This document shows, one piece after another, positions 1 to 64,000 of a DNA stretch of 64,000 nucleotides. Below the pieces are notes generated by a model. The model ran no database searches, was not told the origin of the DNA, and worked only from the letters and a program-made list of their open reading frames with translations. Made by a program: the position numbers and the translations under genes. Source of the stretch: a virus; the IMG/VR virus record IMGVR_UViG_3300000285_000003. The stretch is one strand, 5' to 3'. Positions within the stretch are counted from its first letter, which is position 1; the number at the start of each line of letters is the position of its first letter.

Positions 1-3000
1 GATCTGTGTTAGTCTTTAAGAACGATACGGCGTTCACTATAGCGCTTTGCTATTCTTTGTTGTAAGTAATTCCTCCAGACTTACCGGTTGATCTAACAGT
101 GGTGACATCAGTATTCCTTACAGGAGATTCTGCTTTGGTTTCTTTCGGTTCTAGTTTCTTTGCGTTAATATAGAATTTCTATTTAACTTCTTCTACAAGT
201 TTTGCATATTGAGCATCATTCTCTTGATAACCAATATAATTCATACCAAATCCAAAGTCGCTATTACCAAACTCAAATATATCATTGCCTTTAAAATGTA
301 ATCCCTTCTTCTTACATAGTACATAAATCGGAACTTCTGTTAGGCTTACGTTTCCTGTATCTTTATCTTTGATTCCATTAAATTTACTAACTCCAACCAA
401 TCTGTAAAGAGATCTATTTACATTATTGTTGTACTTATCAGACAACTCATCCTTTACAGTAATATATCTAGGGTATTGCCCATTATCAAGTCTATTGATA
501 GTAGTGACATATTCTGAATTTTTGTCCAATGCATAGCCACATAAAGCAAATGGCTTCATTAACTATGGGTCATATATTCCAGAGTCAGTAAAATTCTTTC
601 GGCCTTTTCGTTCATAATCGTACTGTGGTACAAAATCGGTATCATTCCAATTATTTCTAAGTATATCATCTATAATAGCCTCTCTTATGCTTGGCTCAAG
701 ATTTGTATTAAACTTATTTAACCAGAACTCTACATGTCCAACAAATCCGCTATTAATCTTCCATGAGTTAGGAACATATTTAAAGAATCTGTTAAAACCA
801 GATTTCTCACCAGATGTTAACCATGCGTAAACTACAAGATCTCTAGCAAACTCCTTTAACTCCTAATCGTCCGGATAATTAAGCAATTCTTCCCAAGCAT
901 CAGTTAAGTCATCCTGGTTAAATGATGATTCTGATATACTGTGGAATGTACTAACAAACTTAGGAGCAGGATAAGTCTATCCATTAGCGCCTGTCGTTGA
1001 TTCATCTTTAACCTAATCTGATTCTACGAGCGATGTAAGCAGTTTGTTATTTCTTAAGTAGAACAATTTATCATCTGGATTGTTGATCCTACGCTTTATG
1101 CCAGCAAGCCTGTCAGCTATTGTATTGTTACCAAAGAATAATCTATTAACGTCTATCTTATTATTATCTTCTACTGCATAAGCTCTAATAAAGAGTGATT
1201 TAATACACTGTGAAACATTTCTATCTAACTTGTTGGCTATATCTTCTGTCTATGAATAATTGTTCATAAACTGACCAAGCTAACCAACTAATGAAGTATA
1301 AGATGTAGTAGCCTCAAATACCTATCCAGCAAGAATACTCTTCATTGCTTTCATAAATGAATTAGTCTTCTTATCAATCCAAGAATGTGTCATCATTTTC
1401 ATAACGCCTTCTGGTTCGAAAGATGTGTTACCTTGCTGAATATCCTTTAAGAACTAATCGTACTTCTCTTTATATAATAGCTATTTAGCAAGCGTATTTC
1501 CCTGCTTCTTTGTATCGATCTTAGTAAGCTGTACGAGTTTTGAGATATCATTTACAAATGGCTGTAATATATTCCATGCCTTATATACCTGCACCTAAGC
1601 TCTACAAAAATCTGGATCTTTTAACATATCCTCCTTATTAGTATATTTAAGAGCGTAATTCTTAAGATATTTTTCGCTATCAAACATACTATTTATTATT
1701 CTGATAGGAGAATTATTTTTTGCAGCATTCAATATGTGCTATTCCTTATCGAGCTATTTTTGTATTCCAATTCTAGCTTCATCGGATGTAGCTTCCTACA
1801 AATTGCTAGTAAGCATTCGTACCCTATCTTCGATCTAATCAATTTCATCCAAAGAATCGAGTCTTACGCTATTTATAAATCCTAATTCCCTTGTAACATC
1901 TTGACTATATAATTCATTTCCTTTACCAAGATAGCCAGCTATGTATTGCCTAAGAGCTTTCTCAGTAGCATCCTTCTAAGCTCTGTATTTACTCTTTGTT
2001 AAATCTCTACCATAGTGTCCACTAGCTGCTTCTGCAGCGAATGCCATATCCTTAATAATAGGCTACGTGATAAACCAAACGGAATTATCAGCCTAACCTG
2101 TTCTAACAAGGAAATTAAGCATATTATATGTAAAGCTATTTACGTTTATCTTTGATACATATGGATCCTTTACGATATCACAGTGAGCATTAATAAATGC
2201 TGACAGCCACGACATAACAGCATTACCATTCTTGTCATCACGTAAGTCTATACGTTTGAATGGTGTCTGCTTAGTAAATTCTGTCTCCTTTAATTTTACT
2301 CCGTAAGCCATAGTAAGAGCCTAATTTGTCACATTAAGAGCAAATGGTGCGATACCAAGCTTACCTGTAATATAATCTCTACGTCTATCTGTCTACTCGT
2401 GAAGTGTATAGAAATTGTATGGCAAAGTTTTAGTTGAACCAGCACTATCAAATTGATTAGCTATATTCTAAACAAGATCAGTATCGTTATCGATAGATCT
2501 CATAGCTATCTGTATAGAATTATCATTATCCTTAAGGAGTGTCATGTAATTCTCAAGAAGTTTGTTTTGATAATACTACTTCGTGCCTTTAGGGAATTCT
2601 CTAGTTGCTTTACTATCCTTAACGTCATATGCTAATGATGCAAGATAAAGTTTATCGATATCGAAGTCGGATCCAGTTACTTTGGTAAACTCTCTAGGAA
2701 GAATAATTGTATCTTTTACAACAGGAAGTACATCTACAAAGCGTAAAGCATGTATAGATGATTGAGCCTATGTAGGAATACGGTAACCAATAGTATTGGC
2801 TTTTACATCACTTCTGTTGCCTATAATCTTATTATCAAACAACCATTTTCTAGCCTAATCAAAAGACATGCCTTTTGGTATTATATGCTCAAAATAGTCT
2901 ATAGATATAACAGCGTCCATACTGCCATCATTATTGATAAACTGAAGCTGTTTTCCTTCATTAAGAGTCTACCAATTAATGATCTTTCTAGCTGCTGCAG

Positions 3001-6000
3001 GTAACGTATCGTACTCATCATCTGATACGATATGTCCCTCCATAGCGAATACAGATCTCTGATAGAATGCGTTTCCTGGAGTCTTAACATCTACAATCCT
3101 CTTATTAAGAGCAGATGTAAGAATACTCTCTATCCAGTGTGGATCAGACTGAGCAGCAAGCGGTACATTTAAGTGTTTGCTACCATCTGCATCAACCTTA
3201 ATAGTAATAGCGTCAATTGTATTCTTGTTAGCATTTCTTGACGTAAGCTCATCATTTAAGAATTTAGCGAACTTTTGTATATCAAACTCTCCATCAGTAA
3301 AGAACAAATCATCTACTTCTTTAACTCCCATATCGGAAAGCTAGTTTATAGAATCCATGATATTATCAAGAATCTAAGATCCAGATATAGCTTCGCCTGT
3401 AAGAGAATCTGTATAGTTAACTCTATCAATAATTAAACTGGCAAGTGCTACCTTAGCAGTCTATGTACCAAGATTCATCTCAATCTTTCCATTAGGGTCG
3501 GTATTAAGCTACTTTCTAAGATATCTAAGATCCTATTTGAATGTAACAAATGGCTCTTCTATACCTTTACCCTGTTCAAATTTAGAGTTATGCTTGTTAC
3601 CAATCTTTACAGCAGAATCAAACAAAAGCATATCTACGCCTTCGTTTATCATCTTATTGTATACCTTGCCCATATCTCCCATTGCGATAGATGGGAATAT
3701 AGGGAACAATGCCATCTTATTATAATAAGGTATAAGTAGACTGCCAAGTCGTTCATCATTTCTGTGTCCAAATGCACTATACTTCTGAGCTCCAACAATA
3801 AATTCCTAAAGCTCTGTAAACGCATCTGCCTTCTATCTGAATGTATACTGCTTATTTGGGTCTCTAAGCATAGCAAACAGCTATTTGGCTTTATTGCTAT
3901 ATAATCCAAGAGACCTTAAAAGCTTTTCACACATCTTATCTGTAATGAATGCAGATCCATCTGCTACATTTATAGGGTCTTTAGCTTTAGGATCATATAT
4001 CTTTCCAGCATAAGCTTTATATTCTGCTTGATATTTCTTAGTAACTCTAGCCTTGTCGTTTTCGTCAAGATATTTGTCTCTAAACTCTTCGAAATCTTTT
4101 TGTGTTTTATGTTCTGCGTAAGCTATATCTGCTGCCTCTTTCTTACTTTTACCACTACGCACAAGTTTGTTGTATACAGCTTCTTTTGTATTAGCTTGCA
4201 CAAACATCTTTTCGACACTATTCTGGTAAGCGTCATCAATGTTACCATCGTGCATCTTGTCAGCTTCAGAAGAGACCATAAAATCATCAACCTGCGCACA
4301 TGTGTACTTCGATTCAGAGTCATCCTGGAAGTCGGTTCTAGGGTTAGCTCCGGTAGAAATAAGTCCTCCAAGACGTTTTAACTGGTCAGTTTGTCTATCT
4401 TCTAGCTCGTTCTCACTATACTACCATTTATAGAATGCAGGGTGACCACCAAATAGTCTTTCTACTTCTTGTACAGAAATAATAGATCTTGTAGAAACAT
4501 CTGACATCATTGCTACAACTGCCGCAGCATTCAGCTATTCAATAGTTTTAATACCTTCTGTTCCAGCTAACGAATGCCTAATACAGCTAAACTCATTGTA
4601 GCTTAGACCAACATTCTCTAATGAATAATAGTTGTCTACATCGCCTTTAATGAGCCCTAATTTTATAGCCTTCTTAACTTCTTCTTTAAACTGAATATCA
4701 AGAACTCTAGCCATAATATTTCTCTATTGTTCTCTACTCTTATTAAAGAACTATTCATCAGCTAATTTCAGGCAGTCTATACTACTCTTTTTAGGATCAT
4801 TAAACTTTATTCTGTTGCCATTGTCATCAAGTATGGATGTAAGTGACGAGAATCTTGTACCATTAGGCTCTACCTTTACTGTTTCACCTTTACTGTTTAC
4901 ATACTTATTAGGCGTATGATAATTCTTTATCTTTACAGTATCATCTATAGCTGTATCACCTTCAAAGTATCCAAGCTGATGCATACATTCAAGTATAGCT
5001 GCCTTTTCATCCTTAGCGTAGTCTATAAATATATCCAAAACCTAATCAGATGGTCTTACTATAGTCTTACCAGTTGTATCTGTAACTATTCTAGGGAGTG
5101 CTCCAAGTAACTCTTTTCTAAGAGCTGATTTTTGATCTTTATCAGAACTAGATATAAGTTTATTTATCAGCCTATAATCTATACCAGGAATCAAAAATCC
5201 GTTAATAGCTTGATCCGAAGCCTGTAAATACATATATGTCTTTTTATCAGACATTGTAGGATAAATCAATCCTCCGCTAATAAGCATTGTAACCTTAGAC
5301 ATGTAATCCTCTATATTTGAAACCTAGTTATAATCGGATCCGTAGTCGTCATTCTGATCAGTCTTAAATCCGGCATAGTTATTCATAAGAATCTTCGCCA
5401 TCTTATTTCCTTCGTTCTGAGCAATCCTTCTAAGGACTATTGAGTGCTTATTATAACAGAAATTCTAGATTCTCTACTTAGCTTCATTATTAGGATTTTC
5501 GTCCTATATATCAGCAAGTATATCTGATACTGTATTATTCTCTCCCTGTGTATATGCCTTGTTATTATTGGTTAAGAGGTTCATCATCTCATTCTTAACC
5601 TTGTTATTCATAGACTGATACTTAGCAAGCTCATTTACAAATGAATCTTTATTATATAATGTATCAAGCTATACTTCAACCTATCCAGCATTTCCTATTA
5701 CAGAATCAAGAAGGTTCAAAAATTTACTCAAACTTACAAGAACTGTTTCGTTAAGCATCTATCTAAATGAATCGGCACTAAACTCTCCGTACTTATTAAT
5801 AAGCATATAGTTAATGGTATCGCTGTCAATCTATATACCTATCTTATTAAGTGTTATAGTAATCTTATCTATAACTTCAGACAACTATGCAGGGCTTGTA
5901 ATGTCATATGTATTGTTACCTATCTTTATGTCATTTCCAGCATTTGCCTAAGTCCATATTGATTTAATCCAGTTTGATGTACGTTTAAATATATCCTTTC

Positions 6001-9000
6001 CAGGAGCATTGTATACTACACCGTTCTTGTCTCTATTGAATAATATTCTACCTTCCTAATCTTTCATTGTAGATACAACTCCAGTAACGCCATTAGCTAA
6101 TCTCTTTGACCAATCCTGTGAAAACTTAAGTGTGTCCCTATCAACTGATAAGTTTGACATTCTTATACTTACATTTCCATCTTTGTCTGTAGAAGACCTA
6201 GTCATCATAAAGTTATATTTCTGACCAACCAATGCCTGGAATACTTGTGTTACAACAGCCTCTGCGTTATAGTTGATTCCTTCTCCGGTTGTCTTATCAT
6301 AATCTATGTATTGAGCCTAGAAATACTCATCAAACGTAGAGTATACATAGAAGAACATAGGGTCCTATGAAGCGAGTCTAGCTAATTCGTCATGGAGTTC
6401 TTGAACAGTCTTTACATTGTGAAGCTATTCGAACATCTTACTAAATACTTCAGTCTAAGGCATAAATCTAGGATCACCAAACAAGCTGTGTGATGTATCA
6501 AGTTCAATGCCTTCTTCATGATTATTGGCATTAGCCCACTTAACATATGGTACAGTTCCAAAGAAGAATTTAGCTTTTTGAGATACGCTTTGCAGCTTAC
6601 TCATTTCGTAAGACTCCTTGCCAACATAATCCATATAAGCTCCAGCAGAACCAGCTTCAAGCTGTTCCTACATATCTTCGTCATTAGTATTTCTAACAAC
6701 ACCTTCTTTGCTTATGTTAGCAATCTTAGCATACACTCTATCGGCTATAACAGCAAAGTTTGGATAATACTATTCCTTTCCTATAGCTACTCCATTTTTA
6801 TCAGTTATATACTTCTCTTTGCCTTGCTTAAATATTTCCTGGAATGCTTTAGCCTAAGCTTCTGGTACCGGAACTTCTGGATCTTCACCCATAAGCTATT
6901 TCATCATATCTACACCGATAAGCTTTTTAATATTTGTACCAGTAATTGTAAGTTGATCTATATTATCTCCAACAGCATTAACTCTTCCTTCTTCGAGAGC
7001 CTTCTCTACTATATAAAAAGCTATAGTTTCAACGCAATCGTTGAGCTGCTCGTTGTTTAAGATATTTTCGAAGCTATGCTTCATACCAGTCTTCTGATTG
7101 TAAACATCATAATGAAGAGAATCGCCAAACTTAGCTTTAAAACGCTCAAGGTTTTCTTTACGTATATTGCTTCCTGCTTTTGTTTTGTACCAGCCAGTAG
7201 ACATTATTGCTGACAAAAGTGTAAGTCTAATACTTCCGAGATCCCTAGCAAATTGTACACCGGCTTTAATCTTCTAGAAAAGAGCTACTACCTTATTATT
7301 GGAAAACTCATTATCATCGTAGTTGTTTTGAGCATCCATATACAGATTTGCTAATCCTTCTGCAATCTCTGTATCAGACATCTTATCATTACCTTCTCTA
7401 CTCTTATACCAATCGTATATCTTCTGTCTTTCAGATGGTCTTAGCAACAGCTCCAATACTCTATGGAATGCTTCGTGATACTGCACACCGTCTACAACTC
7501 TATTACCAATGTAAACCATGTCTGACATACATTTTCCGGCAACAGCCATGTCTGCAGGTATATCGTCATTTAACTATTTACCTATCTCATAGTTACCTTC
7601 ACCTATAACGCGCTTTAAATACGCATTCATTTGCTCTCTATCACCATCTGTTATATCTCTAAGCTTATTAGGCTAAACCTCTAATTTTAGTCCTCTAGAT
7701 CGATTTAAAAGATTTTTGAGAGAGTTTAATCTAGGCATTGAGATTGAATCTTCTTTTTGCCGCTCAGTGAGTATATCGTCTATACGATCATCTTGTTTTG
7801 TATTAGGAACCAAATATGGGCCTCTAAAATAAGTGGCAGTATAATTCTAACCGACAACAGATGTCTAAGTGTACTGATGGCGCATAAGGTAACCAGCGTA
7901 TGTACTCTTTCTTCTTTCATTTCCATCCTGGTCAAAGAAATCATCTCTGCTAAACTCTAAGCCATTTGGAGCAACAAATGTATCAACATTAGGGTTATCT
8001 TCAAAGTAATGCTTTACGTTGTTTATAACAGAGTTGTTTGTAAAGTTAAGCTATTGACTAAGCATAGTCTTTTCGAAAGCAACACCAACAGATCTTAAAT
8101 CTGTTCTGAGTCTCTCTAAGTCATGCTCACTTGTAAGATCGTATGATTCTCCAGTTCCATATATATGCTTACCATTGTCGTCGTACTGAGGTAATCCTAT
8201 AATAATCTATTTGTTTGAAGAGAATGTTATAGTTCTAGTCTGATTTGTTTTATAGTTAGGCTAATTATTTTCATTAACATGTACAAGCATCTTAATAAGA
8301 TCATATGTATTGTATCCGTTATAATTAACCTATCCCTAAGCATAAGCTCTTAATAAGTCTACAAGAGAATCAGCTTGATTCTAAGAAAGCTTAGACTGAT
8401 ACAGTATAACTGGAATTGTAGTCTAGTTACCTTTCTTCTCATCGAAGTTTGTATGCCATAAATATACAGTAGAACCTACTGATGTATTCTGTGTTCCAAC
8501 CCTAGCACTATTTAAAGTATGTATAGGACTATTTAAGCCATCAAGACTCATTACGTTCATATTACCTTTCTTGTCCTATTTTACTATACCAATCTATTTG
8601 CTCTTAAGGTCAATAGAATACGTATCATCAAGACTCATTATGTTTCCAACAACAGAATGTAAACCCTCTACTGTTGGAGAGTTTTCATTATAACCAACAA
8701 ATGCAGGATCATAAATAAGCGATCCATTTGTTCTTGTAGGTATAACTCTTAATGAGTAATTCTTATGCTTCTAGCAGAACTTCCATAAATCGACGAGATG
8801 CTGCTGATATCCCATTCTACTTTCGTCACCACCTTCATATATGTGCAATTCTATAGACTGTCCTTTGTATGTAATTCTTAAGTAAGGTCTATTGCTGTAC
8901 TCTGTAGCATTTCTGAATATAATCTCAAACTTACCGTTAGTAATAAAGTCTGGCTAATTACTCCACTCTACATAAGTCTTGTTTTCCTACATGGCTTTTA

Positions 9001-12000
9001 CTCCAGGTCTATGTAATGTTGTTCCAACGCCTTGACCAGAGATATAATTATTACCACCAGATTCATACCACATAAACTCCTGCTTATTAAGCTCTTCTGA
9101 TTCTCTAATTATGGAAGCGTCTGTGTCAATGTATGAGTCATCAAGTTGCTTTCCATACTTGTTAGCAAAGCCAGATATAAGCAATCTACCTCTATTAATA
9201 TTGTCCTAAAGGACAGGATTCATAGGGTTATCTGGATTCTGTTCAATATAATCTTGAGCATTATTAAGCAACATTCCGAAGTAGTTCTTAAGTAACCTCC
9301 AATACCAATCAGATTCAACTTCACCAAGATTCTGTTGGAATTTATTTCCATACAGTCTCATGTAATCTGTTATCTTCTGATTATAATCAAGTGTAAGATT
9401 ATCACTTCCATTTGTGATTGTGTTTCTACTATCTCTTGGAAGTACTACGTTGCCTTTTGCATACTTAGTAAACCACCAATCAAGTATTTCTTCGCTAGTG
9501 TCTCCCCATATAGATCTATTGTTATTAAACTTCATAATAACATTATCTATGAGGTCTCTCTCCTAAGAAACATTTACAGCCTAAGCTTCATTATCCTGCA
9601 ACAGATTATCAAGGGCTATTTCTGCTCTCATTAACTGTATAGACAAATCGTTTATAGCGTCTCTTTCTGGCTATGTAGTAGGTTTTACATCAGCTATTGT
9701 GCTAGATATTGAGTCAAGTGTATTGCAAGCATCTTCCAACTCGAGGACTAACTATGCTACAGTCTTTGGAAGATCATTATAGTCTGTTACGAGCGGATCC
9801 TGTGGAATTTCTTTCTAGTCGTTAAGATTGTTTAACTAGTCAGTAAGATCGTTGTATACCTAGTTTGTGTTCTGTATTATGTTACCAAGCTGCTTTATAG
9901 CGTCTTTTAACTAGTCTTCAGTTGCAAGCTTATCTATATCCAGTATATACTGTGATATACTCGTCTTATCAAATGGAGTTAACGACTAATCTGCAATCTT
10001 CTGTATAGCTGATTCAATATTGTCTATGTTAGACAGATTCTGTTTTACCTGCTGTACTAGCTTGTCTACATTTTGCTTAAGCTGCTCAGTCTGATCTGTC
10101 TTGTCATTTTTAAGATAATTCTAAACACTTCCAACACTAAGAACATTCTCTTCTGAATCAAGATTCTCAGCAACAGTGCCAGCCTATTCTTTAGATTTAC
10201 TAAGATATACATATGATAACATTCCGCTTAAATCTGGAATATCCATAGCATCTAATGGCATATCTTTAATATCATCAAGAAATGTCTTAAACGAATAATA
10301 TCCCTACTATGTACCATAGGCAACAAGTTTTGCAAGAGTTGATAAAAACTTAGGGCTTATACCAGAATAAGCTTCACCAGATCTAGCCCACTCCTTGATA
10401 GCAGCTTTCATCTTAGACTTGAGAAGTCGTTTCTTAGCCTCTATCTTAGCTCTTCTTTCATTTCTCTCTTGTCTTTGTTCAGAAAGATTATTAAGCCTTT
10501 CAAAGGAATCTGCTAATTCGTCATCAGGTTTAGATTTATCTACAATTGCTCTATTAGGTTCCAATCCTGCATTAAGAAGCTAATCATTGATATAATCTTC
10601 GATTATTCTAGCATTGTCTTCATTTCTGGTAATAATGTTCTTATATCTCTTAGAAGACTATAGCCATCTATTTATTTTATCATAGCTTCTACCTCTAAGG
10701 ATCATGTCATCAATCTTGCCCTTGAGTTTTCCTACGGAGCCAAGCTTGTCTTCTTTTATCTTGAGTTCAAGATCATCATGAACATAAGGTCTATCTGTAT
10801 TCTCAAAAGTATTATTTTCTACAGAATAATTGTTTTCCGGAGTATATACTTTATTTTCCTACTTTGTAAGAGATTCTACATGAGACTATGTATCTTTGTG
10901 CTCTGTATTTATTTCTCCAGTAGAAGTATTGTCCTGGTTCCACTTTTGTCCATAAGGATCATTAATAGCATCTGCTAAAGCCCAATCTATTGCCTTATTT
11001 CTCTCTGTGGTAGCCATGACGTCGTCTATGAACTTACTGAATTTAGTGTTACCATTTCCTTCAGCTTTTAGACCATCGGAGAACATCTTCTATCTATCCG
11101 CTATAAGATTTGCGTCTGCATTAAGAAGAGCTCTTACTCTTGTATTCTCCTCTATGTCATCAGAGAACTACTCAATAGCTCCCATGGCGTCAAGCTTATC
11201 CATTACTTGTGCATCATTAAGGCCATCAAGATTGATACCAGACAGCTCAGACAGTCTCTGAGAGATAATCTTTATATCACTATCTATAGACTTGTGTATT
11301 TTAGCAGCATCTTCTCTTATAGTATGCAATCCAAACTTATCTCTAAGCATATTGAAAAATCCGTCAGAAGTCTTGCAATCTGATCTAAGCTTAAGCAAGC
11401 CTCTAAGCTATCCTACAAGTATAGTTCTTTGACGAAGATCCTCAACGTTGCTTATTCCGGTAGGACCTGTCATTCTATTGAGCTTATCCTATTCAGACTG
11501 TGCTGATATCAAATCTACTTCCTAGCCTAATTCCTCAAGAGACTAAGCATTCTGCTCTGCTTCTTGTCTAGCCTTATCAGCTCTCTGCTAAGCAAGACTC
11601 TCTATAGATGATCCACTCTATCTTCTTCTTAATTCCTCATCAATAGCTTGATTAAGCTGTACCGAATGTATAATCTAATTATATTCATCTATAGCCTTCT
11701 GTCTCTAATCTCTGTTCTCGTCAGAATTCTAACCAGTCTAATATACAGATGCTACAGCTGCAGCATATTTATCTGTACCATATTGTATGCCATGCTTCTC
11801 CATTATAGCCTTAGTAGTAGGGCTTAATGTCATTCTCATTATGTCCTATGCCGCTTTTATTGAGGAGTCCCACTCATCGCTTGAGTAAGTATGCTCCTTT
11901 CTTCTAGCGTCCTCCTATTTAAGCTATTGCATAGTATTTAAGATCTACTCCATATTAGATCTACCTTTCATGGCTTCTTTTGCAAACAGCTGTCCCTAAG

Positions 12001-14449
12001 CTCGTTCATTTTGCATCATTATACGATTGGTAATACCGGCATTAAGTATTGCCTAATCTGCTGATATCTGACGTACAAGTCCAGGTATTTCCGATACAGC
12101 TCTCATCGCAACGGTATGACCGCCTCCAAGAGCAAATCCTCCTTTATAATTCTACCAGAACTCTTCATTGTCAAGGAGATCGCTATCTCCTATTCCTAAT
12201 TCAGCTAATATGGCGGCCTGTGTTCTTGAGCCTGCGCTATATTCATTTGCAAACAAACTACCTAGGCTAGGAAGCTCTCCAAGGCCCATCTGCTGCCTTT
12301 TAGCCTGCTCTGCATTAACATACTGTCTGGCTTCTTCTGCAGCCTCAGAGGCTGAAGAAACAGCCCAAACCTTACCCATTTTTAAGCCGTATGCAGAAAG
12401 TCTTCTTGCTGTCAATGGTATCTTATCCAAGATGTCTTGATAGTACTATCCTGCTCTATGTGTAGCAAGTCTAATAAATGCCTAACCTCTGGTTGGTAAA
12501 GCTTTTTTAGCCTAATCTAATACAGCCTTTCCAATACCTGTCATAGTACCATACACATACTAACCGGTCATACCATGTCCTAATACTGTAGCAGTCTGTT
12601 CTCCTAATCCAAATCCGCCTCTAAAGCTATCTGTGAACTCCTTTCTAAGAGTTGCGTATCTACTACCGTTTACGGCGTCTTTAGCTGCTTCTGCAGCAGC
12701 ATTTGTAGCTGCTCCTTCAACTGTATGCTCTATAGCGCCCGTAGCAGAATTAGCTGCACGTTTAATAGTTTTATTCGCAATCCAGTTTATGGTTCCTTTT
12801 CCAGCTTTGTATAGCTCTCTTCCAAATATACCAACCTGTAAACCCTTCTGTACCATAAGATCTGATCCTGTTGTTATGTTATCTTTCTGGAAAAGGGCAT
12901 TACTTCCAGCAAGTGCTCTAAGCTCAGCCTTTCTGTATTCTGGATGGTTAGAAGTTATAATGCCGGATAATGCACTGCGAAGTATCTCGTCATCGCTTTC
13001 TGTATCTGGATTCATGTTCAGTTTCGGATATGCCTATTTAGCCTTTTCTCTCAAGTCTTTTATTATATCCTGGTACTGTTTCTTGCCACCAGACATTAAG
13101 TTTGATTTAAGCTTATCAACATTAGCATCGCTAACTTCGCCCCTATTCTCAAACTTCATGTTCTCTATATCAAGACCTGTGGCAGTAGTCGCTACCTATG
13201 AGCCAATGTTTAACAAGGCTTGTCCTTTTGGTCCTAAGAACGCACCACCAATAGCAGCTCCAGTATTCAATGCCATAGCTATTCTTCCGGCAGTAGAAGC
13301 GTTAGAAGCAGCTATCTGAGAAGGCATTTCGTACTGCCAGTATTCTGGTGAGAATACACTAGCATTAGCGTATCTCTACTTTTTCTTATTGTAATCGTCG
13401 CTAATTGGGAACCACTTCTCGTCAGCCTGTCTGTACCTTACATGCTTTTCATAATCCTCTTGAGCTCCCTTTATTTCAGCATTAAGCTGAGTCTGGAAAT
13501 CTGTATAGTCATCAATCTGTGCTCTAAGTGAGTCTTTTAAAGGTAAGCCCTAGAATCTCTTTCTGTTGTTATCTATATTCTTGTCATATATATACTAGTG
13601 TGCAGCCTAAGAGAACTTTTCTTTATCATTCATCTTAAGTGTTTTATAATCCTAGTTGTTATGCGCACCATAAGCATTAGATGTATTAAGATAAGCTCCA
13701 GCCTTACCTAATACGTCTAAAAGGAATCCACCTGCACCAGCTAATCCCTCTTTGACTGAGTTCCATACATTATCCATGTCGTGCTGAGCTCGGAGCTGTT
13801 CAGCTCTCTGCTCATACACTTCACCATTGTTTATCTGTTTATCAAGCTATTTAATCTGACTATTTATTCTAATAATGTTCTATTTATCTCTATTTGATAA
13901 GTTAGCCCTATTATTAGAGTAGTCTTGTAATTGCTGCTAAAGTTGTAATCTCTACAACTTTAACTCTTTATTCTTCTTAGCTAAATCAACTGTTGCCGAA
14001 GTTTCCTTATTCAGCATTACTTTACCAGAAGCGTTACTCGCCCTTACCTGATCAGTAGATCTGAATATATCTCCAAGCATTTCCTTGCCTATCGCTGTAA
14101 AATCAAATCCAGGATTCTAAGGTCTAAACAATGGGCGCTCCATAGCAAGCTCATCGTTCACTTCCTTAGCCTTTTTTAATTTATTGTACGTATCAGATAG
14201 GTTTCTAGTTTCACGCTCCTCTCTATTAAGCGATTTGGATACATTTACATAATCTTTGTATCCATTATTTACAACTCGTTGAACAGGAGATGTGCTCTGA
14301 TATCTAGCTAAGTTGCTTCTAAATCTATTTGTAACCCTACTGTACGGCGTACTATTATTACGTCTTATGTACCCGATAGGATCATAAGTACTGCCTTCGG
14401 ATCCCCATGGGATTATACTAGGACTTACGTTCCTTGTTCTGTTTGCCAT
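1..14449 (-). CDS. Giant virion-associated multidomain protein, N-terminal >4,816 codons (C-terminus lies beyond coordinate 1); TAG read as sense
   Basis: I hand-scanned the minus frame (codon low coordinate = 2 mod 3) from 14449 down to 2. It has no TAA or TGA and roughly 128 in-frame TAG. Every real-looking ORF-track fragment on this strand between 179 and 14449 is in this frame and ends in TAG. The ATG at 14447-14449 lies just downstream of the TAA (14455-14457) of the upstream gene. An HEAFH (HExxH) motif is at 7463-7477. The virion/cargo or RNA-polymerase-type role is inferred only from size and position relative to crAss-like genomes. Confidence 0.85.
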
Positions 14450-17840: not shown

Positions 17841-18612
17841 ATCTTGGTTTTCTTAAATCTTTTCCTCGGTTAGCATATAATACATCATCATACGTGTTAC
17901 CATTATCTAAATAATATTGCTATGTAAGGCCTTCTGTTGCAGCTGACGATTGATTAACCTAGTTGATAAGATTAACTTTCTATTGTGCGTTAAATATCTT
18001 TCTACGCTATCTTTCTCTAGCTTTTTTACTTCTAAACAAGCCTCCGAATAATCCTGTGATAGCTCCAACTGCTCCTCCTATAAGTGTACCGACACCAGGT
18101 ATAGCTGAACCTATAGAGGCTCCAGCAGCGGCTCCAGATCCAACCATTCCTAACGTCGCATTTTTATTTGACTTAGATATATCATCCATAGCTTTCTGTC
18201 TGTTGATATCATTCTGTGCTTGGTAATTTACACCGAATGCCTAATCTGTTCTTTGTCCAGAATAAGCCATAAGTTCATCCGTTCCCTTTACTGCGTTCTG
18301 CATGGAATTATATCCTTGTATCATTCCTATTGTTCCATTAACAGCTCCTGTTACAGTACTAGAGCTTATTCCGACTCCTCCTGCTGTCTAAACTACGCCT
18401 TTTGGGTTCCATTTTGAAGCTGGTGTTTGCCCAATATTAAATGACGCGCTAGAACTTCCTACTCCAGCTATAGCTGATCCAGCAGGAGCGTTACCGCCAA
18501 TCATGCTTGCAAGATCATTAGCTTGATACTATTGTCCAAAACCAACTTTTGAATCTATACCATTATTGAATTTTGATATATTATTTATCTTTTTTCTCTA
18601 CTTTAACTCCAT
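17824..18612 (-). CDS. Gly/Ala-rich hypothetical virion protein with a hydrophobic segment, 262 aa
   Basis: ATG at 18610-18612 (upstream in-frame TAA at 18664-18666) and TAA at 17824-17826, with several in-frame TAG. It contains track ORF 18007..18189 (GSGAAAGASIGSAIPGVGTLIGGAVGAITGLFGGLF). Confidence 0.75.
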
Positions 18613-49197: not shown

Positions 49198-51668
49198 TAC
49201 TTCTCGCCAGATGTTTTATTCTTAAGGGCCGTGCGAGCCTTAAGTTTCTCGCGTTCATAAGCAGCATCATCCTTAGCCTTCTGCAGCTCTGTCTCATGCT
49301 TCATCTTATCCTTCTCAAGCTAAATCTTCTGATCTTCTATCTCGCGCTTCTGCTTAGCTTCATAACGCTTATTATAAGCATCTTGATTAATCTTCTGCTG
49401 CTCGATAGCCTGTTTACCAATTTCTACTGGATCTGGGATTCCATTTTGATCCTGATCTAATTCCTCGGTTCCACGATAAGCATTAATCTGTGCTACAGCT
49501 ATCTTAGTCTGATTATCTTGATCAATCTGATATCTCTGAAGATCCATCTGAGCTTCCTGTAACATAAGCTCTTGCTGCTTAGCTTCATTCTGCATCTGCT
49601 GTAACTGCTGTTGCTGCTGAGCTTCTGCCTCCTGCTGCTGTTGCTGTATCTGCTCCTGTCTAGTCTACATATCCTTAAGCTTCTGCTTAATAATATTGAA
49701 GTTATCGTTTGTAAGAATCTCTGCTGCTTCAAGCAAGCTAGCACCATTCTGCATAGCTGGCTATATAAGCTGCTGAAGCTTCTGTATGTTCTCTAGATCT
49801 TTAGACGTATCACTTACGAATACATCCATATCCTCATAGTAGAACTTAGGAGTAATATCCAAGAATGCTCTTTCTCCATTATCAAAGATATACTGGAGCT
49901 TTTGTTTGCCAGTCTCTTCCCAAGCACCCTTAGCTGTATTAAGAAGCATATTAAGAACTCTTCGCTTGCACTGGTTATGAACCCAGAATAATGGTTCAGT
50001 AATATGCGAGCTCTGTACTACAGATCTTTCTACATTACCTACCATCTCTGATGTGCTTACAACTCCTTCACGCTGCTATGTAATACCAGAGATCGTTCCA
50101 GCCAGTTCTTCTATCTTATCCATTAGCTGTATATATTCAGCTATGACGTTAGACATTGTAAGATCCAATGCTGTAATCTGATTGAACTGAGCAGGCTTAC
50201 CACCCTCTCTTCCTGGGATATTCCAACCTTCTTCATATGGGTTAATAAAGTTAACACCAACACTAGACAAGTAATGCATCCATTTAGCTGGGCTAATATT
50301 CATAGACTTAGGAATCTATGTAATATCCATGTTTACAACCTTACCTTTATCTCTGGCGATAGCTAACTCAAGTCTGTACCATAATACAATATACATATAC
50401 TACAATGGCTTAAGAATGCTAACCAATGATCTAGGCTTACTATTTGTGTTACTATAAATAGCACCACAATAAGGAAGCTTCTGGCTATTAGGGTTATCGA
50501 TACTTACATGCTGATACTCGATAGGCTGTATGCCAAAGTATAAATCGCTACCAGCTCTATATCCTTCCCATACCTCTATAATCCAATCTGGTTCTACACT
50601 AACCTCGTTACCAACAGGCTGATATGTTTCATCAACTATATTGATCTAAGGCTGTCCTGCGTCATCTGTAGTTGTTACGTAAAAGATCTTCTTAAAAGAC
50701 TTCCAGCAACAATGCCATACATTTACAAGCGATTTACCAGATCCTTCAAATATCGGGTTATCATATATACGTAACTATATGCCCATATCAACAGGACTTC
50801 TGTCTCCAAGGTTTCTGCCAGGAGTAGAACCAATCATTTCTTCAAGCCTATCAAGATCCTTCTCTTCAAGCTTGTCGTAATATCTATCGTATACTTCAGC
50901 TATAGGCATACGCATCTTTCTGCAACACCATGATCCATCCTCAATAAAATCAAGGTCTGGACTTTTATCGTAAGAGAAACATATAGGATTAACTCTTTCC
51001 GCATATGGCTCTGCATTAAGTACGCCAACGTAATAAATTTCTCTACCTGAGATCAATCCGTCCTTCCAGCCTTTGATAAACTCGTTGTCAAGATCAAGCT
51101 TCTCTCTCAGATAGGTAAGAGAATGATATGCAGTATTCTCTACAATATCTTTGTAGTCTTTGTCCATATACTTAGCTATCTACTCTGGCGGCATAATCTC
51201 TCCAGACTGTAGCTACTCCTGGAACTACTGAGCTTCTTCTGGGCTCATTTTAGCTGTGATAGCTGCTTCTATATATTGTAGAATCATCTATTTCTCTTTC
51301 TCCTGCATTTCAGATGTAGCCTCCTATGAAGTTCTGATAACTCTGAAGTTAAGAGGTCTTTTTGTTTCCTCACCTATAAGCAAATCTACTTTAGGTCTTA
51401 TAATATTAAAGTCGTGAGGAGTAGCAGGAAAACCATCCTCGACCTTGAATGGGTTTGTAATTGATTTAAAATCCTTCTCGTCGAAGATGCTGTTATATAA
51501 ATTATAATAGGTCTACAGCTCTCCGTAATATGATGTACTATTTCCTCCAGATGTTACGTTACCTTCACCTATAATATAGTTAACGCAATCTTCCTGCCAC
51601 TTCTTTCCTTTCTTTGAAAGAGGGAGCTTTTGTCTGGGGAAAGCTGAATTGTATAAGTTATCTTCCAT
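49197..51668 (-). CDS. Portal protein, 823 aa
   Basis: The ATG at 51666-51668 lies 3 nt after the TerL TAA, and the gene ends with TAA at 49197-49199. The hand-scanned frame is open with about 15 TAG. It joins track ORFs 50775.., 50076.., 49761.. and 49320... The portal call rests on size, position directly after the large terminase, and a Gln-rich C-terminal tail. Confidence 0.7.
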
Positions 51669-51671: not shown

Positions 51672-53735
51672 TTAAAATGTGAATATCGGCATACCGTCTT
51701 CACTTGTGCTGCTATCTTCTTCAAACCATTGTTTGCTAAATAACGGCATCTCGAAGAGTTCAACCTATTTGTTTTGTTCTTTTGCAGACGACACCTTTAG
51801 CTAATAGAGCTCCTCTCTGTATATCATTACCATACACAAAGCTATAACTCGGTCTACATTTCGTACACCATCATTCTCTATAAGCTCTTCTATTAGAGGT
51901 TCGCTGTATACTCTTTCTACATTAGGGTGGCCTTCTTCAAACTCATCTAACAGCCACTCTAATATTAATCCTTCGCCATACGCCCTAATTTGCTTGGTCA
52001 TGTGGCATCCTTTTCTTCTTTGCACTTTGCTGTCTTTAAAGACTTCAGATATGATTTTATCTGGCTAATCAGCCAAGAGGTAATCGCAGTGTTTATTCGT
52101 AAAGTAAGGGTAGATTCCTTTTCTTTCATTCTCAAATAATAATCTAGCGTTATAAAATGTAAGCAGCTTGCGAACATTCTCATAGTATTCTTCTGCTGTA
52201 TCCGGTCTTCCGGAATACTCTGCTACTATTACATCTGTCCATGCTTCACCAGCTCTTACGCGTTTAAATATAAATGTAGAACCAAGAGAGTTTGTAAAAC
52301 TATCATCATGGTCGTATGGGTCGCATCCTCCTATATATAATCCAAGCGGAGGATCCTTTACTGGGTACTCCCATATAACTACAGATCCATGTGGCTTGTC
52401 TCCCTTCTTAAGAGGGTAGTTAGTTATATCACCACTAGGCTTCTCTGTAGCCTTTACCTGACCATTTCCATCCCATTCTAGATCAACTATATGCTTCATG
52501 CTTTGTAGCTTCTTGTTGGTCCTTATTCTTGTCAACTGGTCCATTAATAACTTTCTAGGGAATATATTCTTACCGAGCTCCAATACAGCTTCTGCTGGCC
52601 TTATAGGACGCTCTGATATAAAACGGTCTATTGACTGCTAACTAGCACCTCCATCTTTTACCTTGTTTCTCTAATCTATAAGGTTCTCTATAGCTTTCTC
52701 TTTATAGCTATTTCCATCCCTATCCATGTAAACCTAATTACCGTCATCATCAAATGACTCTAGGTTTGAATATGCTGGAACAAAGAATGCACATTCAGTA
52801 TTCTCTCTGCCTTCATCCCATATATTAGGGAAGCTGAGAACATTATAAGACTTAGGCTTATAGAATAATTCTTTCAATCCTTCGAAGCTAGCCCCTTCGG
52901 TACCACCGGTACCAAATGCTATCATCAATCCGAACGCTTTACCATCATCTGTTTCTACTGAAGGCTGTTCTATACGCCATGCATCAAGAAGGCTAGGGAA
53001 TTTACCACCTTCCTCCCATAGTACAAGCTTAGCACGTGTACCACGCACACGTTCTGGATCGTTCTTAAGAGTTATTCCTGTTATACTGGACAGGTATCCT
53101 TGTTCGGTTTGTTTACCAAACTCATCTGTGATTTTATAACCGGATGTTCTTTCCATACGTGTAGACACAAGTCTTTGCTTAGCCCATGCTGTATGCTTAT
53201 CAAGGAAGTCCATTATCTGCCAGGCTTTAGTTAACAAACCATCACCTATAAGGAATTTCTGTTCTGATGCTATAGCAAAGTTCTTCGAACCTGGTATAAG
53301 CATATAGTTTCTAACTAGCATAGATCCACCCTTAAATGAATATCCTCTCTGTCTGCATTTGAGCACAGCCATATGCTTTCCTTCCAACTCTGCTTGTTCT
53401 ATAGCGCAAAAATAATAGTAATCATAGTCCCAAAAGCTAGGGAATTCAAGTATACGTTGTCTCCTCTTTCTAAGGTTACCCTCTCTATCTGTATACTCTT
53501 CTTCCTTTAGTCGCATGATTGGACTATAATTTAGATAGAAGTAATTGTATCCAGTTATACCTTCTCCATCTGGAGCCGTATAACCATTAATGCATCTATC
53601 TGTCTCTTGCTCCCAATATTTGTTATAATCAGTAGTACCTCTAGGAGCTAAGGTATAGCATCCATGCTGTTGAAAGAAGATAGCTGCCTATCTAAACTTA
53701 TCAGTATCATGGAGTCTCTAATTAAAGTCTATCAT
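51672..53735 (-). CDS. terL: Terminase large subunit, 687 aa
   Basis: ATG at 53733-53735 and TAA at 51672-51674. It joins track ORFs 52734..53516, 52065..52583 and 51801..52025 through TAG. It has an ATPase-like segment (VLKCRQRGYSFKGG ... KLVLWEEGGKFP) and a nuclease-like acidic segment (GGCDPYDHDDS). Confidence 0.8.
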
Positions 53736-58777: not shown

Positions 58778-59335
58778 TTAGGCCTATCCTTCGCTTACCT
58801 CAGCACCTTCTTGTGCCGCCGCTGACTCTGGTACGGACTCAACCTGTTCCTTAAGCTGTGACTGAGTTCCCGTAGCTGCGCTAGATTCGTTTTCGTGTCC
58901 TGTGCCAGTAGAACCAAATCCGCCATCGCCTCTCTCTGTTGACGAAAGCTCAGAAACCTCTGTGATTGTATACTCTGGTATAGGAACGATGACTAACTGA
59001 CAGAAGCGTTCGCCCTGCTTGTAAACAGCAGGAATTGTATCTGTTGTAGCCTTCATGAATGCTACAATCTCGCCTCTATAATCACTGTCGATAACACCGA
59101 CATTATCAGTAAGCCATAATGACTTTTTCCAAATACTAGAGCGTGGTATAAGTAAACCAACATATCCGGCAGGAATTTCAACTGCCAATCCTGTATGGTA
59201 AACCAACATTAGCTGATTTGCTTCATTAAGAGCTGTTTCAATCTTAGTGCAAGTCAAATCAATTCCTGCAGCACCTTTTGTGCCACGAATAGGGAGGATA
59301 GCGTTATCCTCAAGTCTCTTAAATTTCAACTCCAT
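58778..59335 (-). CDS. dut: dUTP diphosphatase (dUTPase) with an acidic C-terminal extension, 185 aa
   Basis: The canonical trimeric dUTPase motifs are present: AGIDL, PRSS, GVIDSDYRGEI and RGDGGFGSTG. I chose the ATG at 59333-59335, because the track start at 59344 is a TTG. The TAG at 58784 is followed by GCC and then TAA (58778-58780). Confidence 0.9.
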
Positions 59336-59360
59336 AGTATTCAAATATTATTTTTTATTG

Positions 59361-59431
59361 TTACCCCACTAGGATTCGAACCCAGACTAAGAGTTTTAGA
59401 GACTCCTGTGCTGCCGTTACACCATAGGGCA
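59361..59431 (-). tRNA. Amber-suppressor tRNA, anticodon CTA (reads UAG); Gln-type identity plausible
   Basis: The 71-nt cloverleaf folds as follows. Acceptor stem TGCCCTA/TGGGGTA (U1:A72). D arm GTGT-AACGGCA-GCAC. Anticodon arm GGAGT-CTCTAAA-ACTCT, a 7-nt loop with T33 and anticodon C34 T35 A36. Variable loop TAGT. T arm CTGGG-TTCGAAT-CCTAG. Discriminator A. No CCA is encoded. Confidence 0.9.
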
Positions 59432-59830: not shown

Positions 59831-60154
59831 TTACTTAGTACGAGTAATCCAATTCCATAAACGTTTATACCAAGGCTTCTTAATCTTCTCTTCGGCTCTG
59901 CGCGCCTTACATCTTAAGTATACGCAATCATCTTTTACTACAGCGCAACCGTTCTCTGGAAGAATCTCGTCGAGCAAAGCATCTGTAAGGATTGATATAA
60001 CTGTATAATAGTCGCAATCAGTCACTCTCATACCTGCCGAAATCTTCTTGCTAATGAAGTATGCTGTAACATCGTTTACATTAGCAACATCAAGCATAGA
60101 GATTACATACTTGGGTCTCTTTACCTTAACTGTCTTTTTAATAGCTTTCTTCAT
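59831..60154 (-). CDS. Hypothetical basic protein, 107 aa
   Basis: This is an intact ORF in the track, from ATG 60152-60154 to TAA 59831-59833, with no in-frame TAG. Confidence 0.75.
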   Translation of the reverse strand: MKKAIKKTVKVKRPKYVISMLDVANVNDVTAYFISKKISAGMRVTDCDYYTVISILTDALLDEILPENGCAVVKDDCVYLRCKARRAEEKIKKPWYKRLWNWITRTK

Positions 60155-60164
60155 AACTTAAATA

Positions 60165-60548
60165 TTAACATTGTCCACAATAGTCTCCACAATCTTCGCA
60201 AGCAGCATTTACATGTGCGCTCTCTTTCTGTTTGGCTGCCCACTCTTCTTTTCGTTTTTGATCAGCAGCTTTGGCGTTATCGAGGGCCTTTAACCAATCT
60301 TCAGACTTAATTATTACAAAGTCTGTGCCAAGATCTCTGTCGTAGAATGTGATAAGAATATCATCTTTCTTTACATCTGCGCAGATAGTTTTGTTAGGGA
60401 AAAACTTTGATGTCCACTCAACATTAGCATCTTCTGGAATAACGTAAATATCATCGATACCTCTTGCAGATCTATTAATCGCCTAAACCTCAGCTGTATC
60501 TGTATCAACAATAATAGGCTTGCGATCAATGTTTATTATCTTTTTCAT
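60165..60548 (-). CDS. Hypothetical protein, 127 aa, with a C-terminal Cys cluster (CEDCGDYCGQC)
   Basis: ATG at 60546-60548 and TAA at 60165-60167. One in-frame TAG (60483-60485) hides it from the standard-code track. Confidence 0.7.
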
Positions 60549-60756
60549 ATGGGCTTAATGGTTTATTTTTATTATCTTTAAATCTATTTTTAAGTTTGAA
60601 TCTAAATAGTTTGTTTATTAATACGTCTCTAGTATCATCTTGATCTTTCATAACATCAACTACGAACTAAAACTAGTGCATAACTATTTGTTTTACTAGC
60701 TCTGGGTCATCGTTCAATGTATGTCCAATCTATCTACAAACTTTATCTATATTCAT
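60526..60756 (-). CDS. Hypothetical protein, 76 aa
   Basis: The ATG at 60754-60756 overlaps the upstream TAA (TAATG). TGA at 60526-60528, with 3 in-frame TAG. It overlaps the next gene by 23 nt. Confidence 0.55.
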
Positions 60757-61184
60757 TACTTTTCTACTGTTTCAGTTGCTACAATATCGTAAAGCGATAC
60801 AAGTTGAGAGTCCTTAAGCAAATCGAAATACATAGCACCTCTAGATGATCTATATATAACGATATCACCAACCTTGATAGGCATCTGCTGTATTTTCTCA
60901 TCGCTATATGGGTGTGTGTACTCATATGGCAACTTAAGTACAACAGCTCTAGAGAAATCTGAATCAACTTCTTTTATCTCTGTCTTTACCTCATCATAAT
61001 CAACTGCCTCGATCCCATCCTTATCCTTCTTAGGCTTAGTGTCCTTAACCACAGGTTCGGAGATCTTCTTCTTAACTTTAACAGGCTCAAGCGGCTTTAC
61101 TAAGAACATCTGTCTGAACTCATACTTTATTTTTGAGCTCAAGTCCTCTGCTAACTGGGTCTGATCTATCATCTTCTCATCCAT
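60756..61184 (-). CDS. Possible GroES/Gp31-like co-chaperonin, 142 aa
   Basis: This is an intact track ORF ending in TAA, with no TAG. MFLVKPLEPVKVKKK near the N-terminus and MPIKVGDIVIYRSSRGAMYFD...SLYDIVATE near the C-terminus resemble the GroES pattern (L.PL.DRVLV ... VKVGD.V.. ..Y.G.E ... DILA). There is a long charged insert between them. The call is tentative. Confidence 0.4.
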   Translation of the reverse strand: MDEKMIDQTQLAEDLSSKIKYEFRQMFLVKPLEPVKVKKKISEPVVKDTKPKKDKDGIEAVDYDEVKTEIKEVDSDFSRAVVLKLPYEYTHPYSDEKIQQMPIKVGDIVIYRSSRGAMYFDLLKDSQLVSLYDIVATETVEK

Positions 61185-61185
61185 A

Positions 61186-61596
61186 TTACTTCTTCAATCC
61201 TTTAAGGTACTCAAGTAATTTAATCATGTTTCTCAATACTGTCTCCTTCTCAACAAGCAAACACTGAGGTGTGTTCTCATCAGCTTTTGACTTAAGAGCA
61301 CAAAGCTCATTGTTGTATTCTGAGAGCTTATTGTTGATCTCGTCAAAGATATTTACGAATCTCTTTTTATCATCAACTTCCTCAACGTATCCATTATCAA
61401 GAAGCATCTTTGCATATTCCTTTGAGATTCTATAAACAGAATTGTAAGAAGAAACAACCGTTGAATTGTCTTCGTTTGAGCTATTATGCTCTTCGTTATA
61501 TACACTTTCGTACTAATCTGTATCAGCGTTGTACTCAAATGTATCACCATTCTCCATTACGAAGAAAGGCTTAATAACCTTTAAAATCTTTGTCAT
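61186..61596 (-). CDS. Hypothetical protein, 136 aa (first gene of the leftward unit)
   Basis: ATG at 61594-61596 (upstream TAA at 61609-61611) and TAA at 61186-61188. One in-frame TAG (61513-61515). It extends track ORF 61186..61407. Confidence 0.7.
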
Positions 61597-61883: not shown

Positions 61884-62282
61884 ATGGATAAGAAGAAAAA
61901 GTGTATAATAGACGAATATAAGACAGTATACGGATTTAGCTTATTCGTTATAATTAACCCGGATAAGTCTGTGATGGATAAAAGATTTGCGTTTAGACAA
62001 GATGAATCATCTATATATGATGGCGAATGGGCAGATTATACAGCCTACACTGTTAGAGGTGCATATGATAAATCAACGGACGAAGATTGCGAAATCATAG
62101 TAGTAAACAAGATCTGGAATAGTGATAATGATGTAAACACGTTTGCTCATGAGTCATTTCATGCAGCTGTAGATATACTTGAGGCATGCCATATAAAGCT
62201 CTCTGATGATACAAATGAGGTATTCGCGTACTTAATTGGGTACTTTACAGAGTGTGTAAACAAAACAGCAAATAAACGATGA
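61884..62282 (+). CDS. Small HExxH (zincin-like) protein, 132 aa
   Basis: This is an intact track ORF ending in TGA (62280-62282). It carries the motif FAHESFHAAVDIL and has no in-frame TAG. Confidence 0.7.
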   Translation: MDKKKKCIIDEYKTVYGFSLFVIINPDKSVMDKRFAFRQDESSIYDGEWADYTAYTVRGAYDKSTDEDCEIIVVNKIWNSDNDVNTFAHESFHAAVDILEACHIKLSDDTNEVFAYLIGYFTECVNKTANKR

Positions 62283-62749
62283 ACTAGTTTGAGATGAGTG
62301 CTGTACTATATTATGCCGACTTCTTGTCTCTACAATACTAGAATAAACCGTGTACAGAATAGTGTAAATATTTCTTTATACATGGAGTACCAGTAAATAT
62401 AGCATACATTGTAGAATAGGAACCAATATACGATCTTGATAATCAATGGTTCTAGAAGAGCCTTAAAGAATATAGTATGCTAAAGCATAAATTCGGCGAA
62501 GATGGAGCTATGAGCTTTATTAAAAACCTATGTAATCTAGGAGTAGCAGGATCTGTAAATGCTACACAAATGATGAAATATATTCATAGATATGACGATA
62601 AATAGGAGCGAGACAAAGCGTTTAGAATGTTTAAATACAACAGATCAAAAGCAAAATATACCCACTTAATACATAACGACGATGGTGAAATTGTAGAGGA
62701 AGAGTGCACAAAATACGTAGCCCATGCTGAGCAAAATAGCAAAAGATAA
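62279..62749 (+). CDS. Hypothetical protein, 156 aa, TAG-containing gene on the plus strand
   Basis: The ATG at 62279-62281 overlaps the upstream TGA (ATGA); an alternative ATG is at 62294. The frame is open to the TAA at 62747-62749 with 6 in-frame TAG (5 from the alternative start). It is invisible in the standard-code track. Confidence 0.65.
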
Positions 62750-63769: not shown

Positions 63770-63786
63770 AAATAGGAGATTAAAAT

Positions 63787-64000
63787 ATGTTAGTAGATAT
63801 ATCTGATATTAAAAAAGATTTAAACGAAGAAGAGAAGGAAATCTTTGATAAGGTAATAAAGGCTATGAATACCAAAAGTATTACAGTAAATATGTTGAAC
63901 TTAGCGTTCGCTGTAATATTGTTGTACGTATGCTTTACAATTCTCCCTTTATGGGCTGCTATTTCGCTTATCGGAATAAAGCTTGCAATCCCTATTGCAG
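63787..64000 (+). CDS. Hypothetical membrane protein, 5' partial (runs off the window)
   Basis: ATG at 63787-63789, and the frame is open to the window end. It has a hydrophobic stretch (LNLAFAVILLYVCFTILPLWAAISLIGIKLAIPIA). Confidence 0.5.
   Translation, partial: MLVDISDIKKDLNEEEKEIFDKVIKAMNTKSITVNMLNLAFAVILLYVCFTILPLWAAISLIGIKLAIPIA

Follow-up and report, generated by a model that had tools for sequence, protein, structure and literature searches.

In a 64,000-nucleotide stretch of viral DNA (IMG/VR record IMGVR_UViG_3300000285_000003; the whole stretch is called the window here), the codon TAG behaves as a sense codon in the genes that fill most of the sequence. Its reading frames, the codons that related phages carry at the same positions and a tRNA gene with anticodon CTA together support the view that TAG most likely specifies glutamine (Gln) and would be decoded by a suppressor tRNA that the phage itself encodes. 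As judged from similarity to reference genomes, the window makes up ~63% of a crAss-like phage genome (Crassvirales, Suoliviridae, genus Burzaovirus, 'delta' group). An initial annotation, made from the letters of the sequence alone, had proposed that TAG is a sense codon throughout the window and stands for glutamine; we report here which parts of this proposal stood and where it had to be narrowed.

Open frames under alternative stop codons

With TAA and TGA as the sole stops, the minus strand of the window (G+C content 35.4%) carries ATG-to-stop frames of 4,815 or more (open at base 1), 2,497, 1,564, 1,389, 890, 823, 687 and 630 codons, reproducing the lengths of the uninterrupted read-through frames described in the initial annotation. 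The longest frame free of TAA and TGA spans 4,819 codons; in 100 dinucleotide-preserving shuffles, the longest such frame averaged 183 codons and reached 250 at most. The major capsid gene, the single large gene that contains no TAG, accounts for the longest frame that is open under the standard code (513 codons). Calling genes again with TAG as a sense codon, as had been proposed, raised the share of the window covered by open frames of at least 200 codons from 9.5% to 88.5%.

Within 29 minus-strand genes comprising 19,497 codons, there are 440 in-frame TAG codons and neither a TAA nor a TGA; read in their other two frames, these genes contain 1,826 TAA and 1,133 TGA; the frames first scanned by hand thus remained free of these two stops in a computational scan. 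The TAG positions are uniformly spread within the late genes (Kolmogorov-Smirnov P=0.18), as expected of a sense codon. Two other reassignments were considered in their own right: code 4 (TGA to tryptophan) was rejected on the 0 in-frame TGA and a TGA-sense coverage of 13% vs. 88.5%, and reassignment of TAA was ruled out by a TAA-sense coverage of 20% and 0 in-frame TAA.

After read-through, every gene ends in TAA (28) or TGA (14), as the initial annotation had claimed, with the qualification that its figure of about 11 TGA ends rises to 14 in our recount, from a gene list that includes a few doubtful small open reading frames (ORFs). The twelve overlaps between a gene end and the next start were likewise recovered (7 ATGA, 4 TAATG, 1 TGATG); the absence of TAG from such junctions, which had been offered as support, is no evidence, because the ATGA and TAATG motifs cannot contain a TAG stop.

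The residue specified by TAG

To read the amino acid at TAG, the large terminase subunit (TerL) and the 1,564-residue protein of the window, with X at each TAG position, were used as queries, yielding 80 and 13 related IMG/VR loci, respectively, with 10-kb flanks; crAssphage cr124_1, the near-identical genome described below, was added, giving two data sets of 80 and 14 loci. The codon of each relative opposite each window codon (a cell) was read via tblastn, independently of annotation. Aligned relatives were available for 449 of the 470 TAG codons, giving 5,475 cells, 2,973 of which are themselves TAG. Among the remaining 2,502 cells, 1,318 (53%) hold glutamine codons, comprising 737 CAG and 581 CAA, followed by glutamate (Glu, 231) and lysine (Lys, 169); tyrosine (Tyr, 43) and tryptophan (Trp, 8) are rare although their codons are single-step neighbours of TAG. 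CAA lies two mutations away from TAG and yet almost reaches the frequency of CAG, as would be expected if selection acted on the encoded residue and not if mutational proximity set the pattern. In the reverse direction, relatives hold TAG in 6.8% of the cells opposite glutamine codons of the window in one set and in 10.2% in the other, and no other amino acid exceeds 1.2%. The relatives show in-frame TAA or TGA in 3 cells in total: 2 belong to the first set and 1 to the second, which comprises 74,881 cells. The frames of the window are kept in ~90 independent metagenomic relatives from several hosts, with TAG either conserved or exchanged for CAG or CAA.

Phages that lack in-frame TAG gave a concordant picture. 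The TerL and portal proteins of seven standard-code phages (cr10_1, cr50_1, Azobacteroides phage ProJPt-Bp1, Kehishuvirus 'tikkala', Flavobacterium phage FPSV-S30, Cellulophaga phage phi14:2 and crAssphage LMMB) were aligned with those of the window; homologue alignments that stop at TAG would have spoken for termination, and here the alignment continues through all 22 TAG positions. The commonest residue at these positions is glutamine (33/143, 23%), to be compared with a background of 4.3% and with 28% at the CAA and CAG positions of the window. The assignment of TAG to glutamine in the initial annotation is therefore borne out by the 53% of non-TAG cells that are CAG or CAA, together with the glutamine-type tRNA described next.

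A glutamine-type suppressor tRNA and its neighbour

The tRNA with anticodon CTA, the presence of which had been noted from the sequence, lies at 59360..59431 on the minus strand (ARAGORN; Rfam tRNA model, 55.6 bits). The U1-A72 pair and discriminator A73 are present in its canonical cloverleaf, the variable loop measures 4 nt, and a CCA end is not encoded. ARAGORN found this one tRNA and labelled it 'Pyl', which is the program's name for any tRNA with anticodon CTA. We examined the identity of the tRNA by scanning GTDB species genomes for its first 18 nt, which comprise the 5' strand of the acceptor and the D-arm (TGNCCNATGGTGTAAYGG). All 101 cellular tRNAs that carry this motif and were called by ARAGORN are tRNA-Gln (101/101; 85 with anticodon UUG and 16 with CUG), and the closest cellular tRNA-Gln is identical to the suppressor tRNA at 57 of 71 positions, with U1-A72 and A73 in common. 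On these comparisons, the tRNA at 59360-59431 is a tRNA-Gln derivative with an anticodon predicted to read UAG. The nearest cellular tRNA-Gln sequences belong to mixed phyla and do not pinpoint a host. A CTA tRNA is found within 10 kb of TerL in at least 20 related loci. In the window, the suppressor tRNA is preceded by ~2.2 kb of the minus-strand unit and immediately followed by the dUTPase gene, and it comes before almost all of the TAG-rich genes.

A second tRNA-like gene was detected on the same strand at 59747-59820, ~315 nt upstream of the suppressor tRNA (Rfam tRNA model, 38.3 bits, with a gathering score of 29). Its acceptor, D and T arms are good and its anticodon arm is abnormal, with a loop of 6 or 8 nt; ARAGORN reports it, as 'tRNA-?(Val|Cys)(ac)', solely once the threshold is lowered, and it has no annotation in cr124_1. 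In relatives, other tRNAs with odd loops ('aa', 'taaa', 'ggaa', 'ca') adjoin the CTA tRNA. Between these two genes, the spacer of 315 nt is predicted to fold no better than its shuffles (z = -1.0) and matches no Rfam family at E<=1. Scans of 59.2-62.4 kb for sigma-70 promoters and terminators gave counts at or below shuffle expectation, with a sigma-70 model that is unsuited to Bacteroidota or to a phage polymerase, and a PHROG scan of the small genes near the tRNA returned essentially no functions.

Relationship to crAssphage cr124_1

Megablast matched window positions 38-60 kb, used as a 22-kb query, to NC_055899.1 (97.6% identity, 89% coverage), with cr7_1 (NC_055895.1) matching the same region at 98%. 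The taxonomy line of NC_055899.1 reads crAssphage cr124_1, Burzaovirus faecalis, Suoliviridae (Oafivirinae), Crassvirales. The TerL of the window is 98.7% identical to its counterpart at the amino acid level, and the near-identity to this type genome together with the crAss-type synteny of TerL, portal and major capsid protein places the window within Burzaovirus. From 16.7 to 63.9 kb, the window is colinear with cr124_1, mostly at 96.8-98.8% nucleotide identity, with one 0.8-kb block at 91%. Both genomes contain the read-through genes of 2,496/2,497, 1,389, 687 and 823 codons for amino acids, and the CTA tRNA of cr124_1 is identical in sequence to that of the window and is annotated as tRNA-Gln in NC_055899.1, which further lists a tmRNA, two tRNA-Val and one tRNA-Met. 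The same record annotates a 2,496-residue 'spore coat protein-like' product, a 1,389-residue 'phosphatase', the 687-residue TerL, the 823-residue portal, a 511-residue major head protein and a dUTPase. As the coding sequences (CDSs) of this record hold in-frame TAG, they had been called with a TAG-sense table. Read-through gene models and the tRNA-Gln are thus already in RefSeq for a genome that is 97-98% identical, and TAG recoding here is not new; the initial annotation had likewise stated that the phenomenon was already published, in agreement with both the literature and this RefSeq record.

The two genomes differ in several places, with a number of indels among the differences. Positions 1-15,417 of the window, which contain a giant ORF, have no nucleotide similarity to cr124_1, and the protein identity there is just 23-30%. 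At about 57400-58195, the window lacks ~1.9 kb of cr124_1 that hold gp34-36, a 'fiber' gene among them. The segment 46283-48189 is non-homologous, with genes of 630 and 340 amino acids in the window vs. the 576-residue gp29. Finally, ~140 nt (59475-59613) between the two tRNA-like genes are extra in the window.

TAG in the replication module

The window itself holds ~2.3 kb of the oppositely oriented replication module, with one recoded gene (62279-62749), and we turned to cr124_1 for the distribution of TAG across the two modules. There, TAG is found 391 times in the 19,931 codons of the late module and 14 times in the 7,628 of the replication module, corresponding to densities of 1.96 vs. 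0.18 per 100 codons. Within the replication module (NC_055899.1 14174-45614), 7 of the 8 TAG-containing genes carry TAG solely in the last 0-14% of the CDS, for example at codon 96 of 96, 164 of 165 and 82 of 83; under a uniform model, such a 3'-terminal placement in seven genes has P of about 1e-6. Because TAG lies at the extreme 3' ends of these early replication genes, it is probably their true stop, which a TAG-sense gene caller would have overrun by a few codons. The statement that TAG is a sense codon 'throughout' thus holds for the late genes (structural, lysis and transcription-block) that fill the window and needs to be qualified for the replication module, which in cr124_1 is nearly free of TAG and where TAG is probably a stop.

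The recoded gene at 62279..62749 on the plus strand, a homologue of cr124_1 gp45, was confirmed as needing TAG read-through. It encodes 156 amino acids with 6 internal TAG, and four homologues (37-45% identity) carry sense codons across all six TAG positions. From these alignments, we take it that this is a genuine 156-residue gene and the sole clearly recoded gene of the oppositely oriented module.

Uneven use of TAG among genes

TAG accounts for 470 (44%) of the glutamine-type codons in the window, next to 349 CAG and 257 CAA, and this share is distributed unevenly. The candidate for an Rz-like spanin at 25259..25924 on the minus strand (phrog_739, E=3.4e-5) has TAG at 12 of 14 glutamine-type codons (86%; binomial P=0.0016), a share that ranks in the top two of the window. 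Borges et al. (bioRxiv 10.1101/2021.08.26.457843) have described spanins of TAG-recoded crAss-like phages as TAG-biased, and the share in our candidate reproduces this bias. At the other end, the major head gene (43457..44992, minus strand; 511 amino acids, by cr124_1 annotation and codon counts) has 16 CAG, 0 CAA and no TAG, and over 48 relatives its glutamine-type codons comprise 4 TAG, 687 CAG and 16 CAA. The portal gene (19% TAG) and the gene at 45011-46207 (14%) are likewise depleted. The depletion in these three genes suggests that decoding of UAG may be less efficient than that of CAG, and that the genes with the highest expression may avoid it.

Genes of the window

By frame calls and codon tabulations, the minus strand from 2 to 59335 constitutes one co-directional block of ~31 late genes with ~465 in-frame TAG and no in-frame TAA or TGA. 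Annotation in cr124_1 provides names for most of its larger members: a 'virion structural protein' of 1,564 amino acids (18603..23297, 40 TAG), the 'spore coat protein-like' product of 2,497 (26584..34077, 62 TAG), the 'phosphatase' of 1,389 (34074..38243, 22 TAG), the portal protein of 823 (49197..51668, 14 TAG), the large terminase subunit of 687 (51672..53735, 8 TAG) and a dUTPase of 185 (58778..59335), which has 1 TAG near its C-terminus and is the first gene downstream of the suppressor tRNA; all lie on the minus strand. The gene list further contains five small genes (59831..61596) that lie on this strand upstream of the suppressor tRNA and have 5 TAG in ~590 codons, all internal.

The block includes the giant ORF (2..14449, minus strand, from frame calls), which has more than 4,815 codons with 128 TAG and remains open at the window edge. 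Given a DFDID (DxDxD) motif at residue 3987 and its genome position, this ORF presumably encodes a virion RNA polymerase or transcription-block protein; such a motif is in keeping with the DxDxD transcription-block protein of crAss-like phages, which evolves fast and is described in PMC7886860. A Pfam scan found nothing for the giant ORF or for the 62279-62749 protein, and phmmer with residues 2381-4816 of the giant ORF found no match among PDB sequences. The giant ORF is 23-30% identical at the amino acid level to cr124_1 from 93765 to the end plus gp01. In NC_055899.1, its homologue is split by the ends of the linear record, with the 5' half (93,765-101,532) having no matching CDS and the 3' half being named 'DNA helicase'. 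We surmise that the mismatch between the two genomes arose either through the swap of a module or through a transcription-block protein that has diverged to an extreme degree.

Discussion

Taken as a whole, the data are best explained, and we consider this very probable, by late genes written in genetic code 15 (UAG = Gln), a phage tRNA-Gln(CUA) and a temporal switch of the code. In this scheme, the late genes, comprising those for the head, portal, terminase, tail and lysis as well as the giant transcription-block gene, would be written in code 15, and a tRNA-Gln derivative with anticodon CUA would be encoded near the head of a late transcription unit of ~60 kb. We postulate that glutaminyl-tRNA synthetase (GlnRS) of the host charges this suppressor tRNA with glutamine and that the charged tRNA would compete with host release factor 1 (RF1) at UAG, with full-length late proteins being made through suppression and TAA and TGA serving as the sole terminators of late genes. 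Early genes would be read in the standard code of the host, with TAG as stop, until the suppressor tRNA has accumulated, upon which the late genes would become translatable. Host GlnRS as the charging enzyme, and recoding as a means of timing late-gene and lysis expression, have both been proposed by Borges et al. (bioRxiv 10.1101/2021.08.26.457843).

Several observations weigh against parts of this scheme. Close to half (~47%) of the non-TAG cells at TAG positions are not glutamine, as expected at variable surface positions, and the amino acid assignment is for this reason a statistical one; the proteomic proof of glutamine at TAG comes from other crAss-like phages, not this one. The temporal model rests on gene position rather than expression data. 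Five TAG codons occur in same-strand genes upstream of the suppressor tRNA, and the TAG-rich gene at 62279-62749 lies on the 'early' strand, so that the early/late split is not clean. In addition, the annotation of the near-identical genome contains no release factor, GlnRS or anti-RF1 gene, with the limit that not every window protein was scanned for such domains.

A more elaborate version of the switch can be envisioned, in which UAG would have a dual meaning within one infection, first as stop and later as glutamine; early proteins would gain short C-terminal extensions late in infection, the TAG-free capsid gene would escape, and the tRNA-like gene at 59747-59820 would belong to the code-switch machinery instead of being a decayed tRNA. 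We regard this version as improbable.

That TAG, as a sense codon, specifies some residue other than glutamine, be it pyrrolysine, glutamate, lysine, tyrosine or tryptophan, appears very unlikely to us. The label 'tRNA-Pyl' that ARAGORN gives to the CTA tRNA would favor such an assignment, as would the ranking of glutamate and lysine second and third opposite TAG and the fact that GAG, AAG and TAT/TAC are one step away from TAG; however, glutamine codons at TAG positions exceed those of glutamate 5.7-fold and those of lysine 7.8-fold, with tyrosine and tryptophan found in just 43 and 8 of the 2,502 cells. The tail of glutamate, lysine and arginine is the normal substitution spectrum of glutamine, equal to that at the CAA and CAG positions of the window itself. 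Moreover, the acceptor/D-arm motif of the tRNA, which has a canonical cloverleaf, occurs in tRNA-Gln only (101/101), and peptides with glutamine at TAG have been observed in related phages (PMC9523058). Pyrrolysine decoding of UAG was also considered separately and rejected on the glutamine-type cloverleaf and on 169 lysine vs. 1,318 glutamine cells among the 2,502, with the limit that pyl genes were not searched for.

Just as hard to credit is a host that reads TAG as sense, with a uniform code over the whole phage genome and no switch during infection. None of the annotated cr124_1 genes ends in TAG when called with a TAG-sense table, and TAG-containing genes are also present upstream of the tRNA as well as on the opposite strand, as a uniform code would have it. 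Against this, the phage has its own suppressor tRNA, and the replication module is depleted of TAG ~10-fold, with seven genes in which an extreme-3' TAG resembles a true stop. To our knowledge, there is no TAG-reassigned Bacteroidota host. Recoded prophages, on the other hand, have been found in hosts with a standard genetic code (bioRxiv 10.1101/2021.08.26.457843). Lastly, the idea that the short standard-code ORFs are real, in a decayed or defective genome or through a sequencing or assembly artefact, has nothing but the fragmented table-11 ORF map in its favor and is refuted by the stop statistics, with zero in-frame TAA or TGA in 19,497 codons, and by the ~90 independent relatives in which the frames are retained and TAG is conserved or swapped with CAG or CAA.

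The value of reading the late genes of the window in code 15 lies in annotation: with TAG as glutamine, the genes for the terminase, the portal, the tail, lysis and the giant transcription-block proteins emerge unbroken, and pipelines that meet such contigs must test code 15. As to biology, the window is an example of phage-driven reassignment of a stop codon, probably timing late-gene and lysis expression, as described for this phage group since 2014-2022.

Among known systems, the nearest is genetic code 15 (TAG to Gln), reportedly recognized in crAss-like and other gut phages by Ivanova in 2014. Yutin et al. 2021 (PMC7886860) described the reassignment of TAG to glutamine in many Beta, Delta and Zeta crAss-like phages, with recoding mostly in late genes and with suppressor tRNAs, and Peters et al. 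2022 (PMC9523058) showed glutamine in peptides spanning TAG in two crAss-like phages. What our phage has in common with these code-15 gut phages is that its late structural and lysis genes contain in-frame TAG, that it encodes a CUA suppressor tRNA of its own, that its replication module is compatible with the standard code and that its candidate spanin gene is strongly TAG-biased. We see no essential difference from them, the near-identical genome being without an annotated phage release factor 2 or GlnRS, as in most recoded crAss-like phages.

A second parallel is found in supE (glnV), the bacterial amber suppressor in which the anticodon of tRNA-Gln is altered from CUG to CUA and GlnRS tolerates the change at position 36. 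Both systems have a tRNA-Gln body with anticodon CUA, and in both glutamine would be inserted at UAG. In contrast to supE, the tRNA of the window is encoded by the phage, and UAG, which makes up 44% of the glutamine-type codons in the late genes, is a routine part of their coding rather than the target of weak suppression of rare nonsense mutations.

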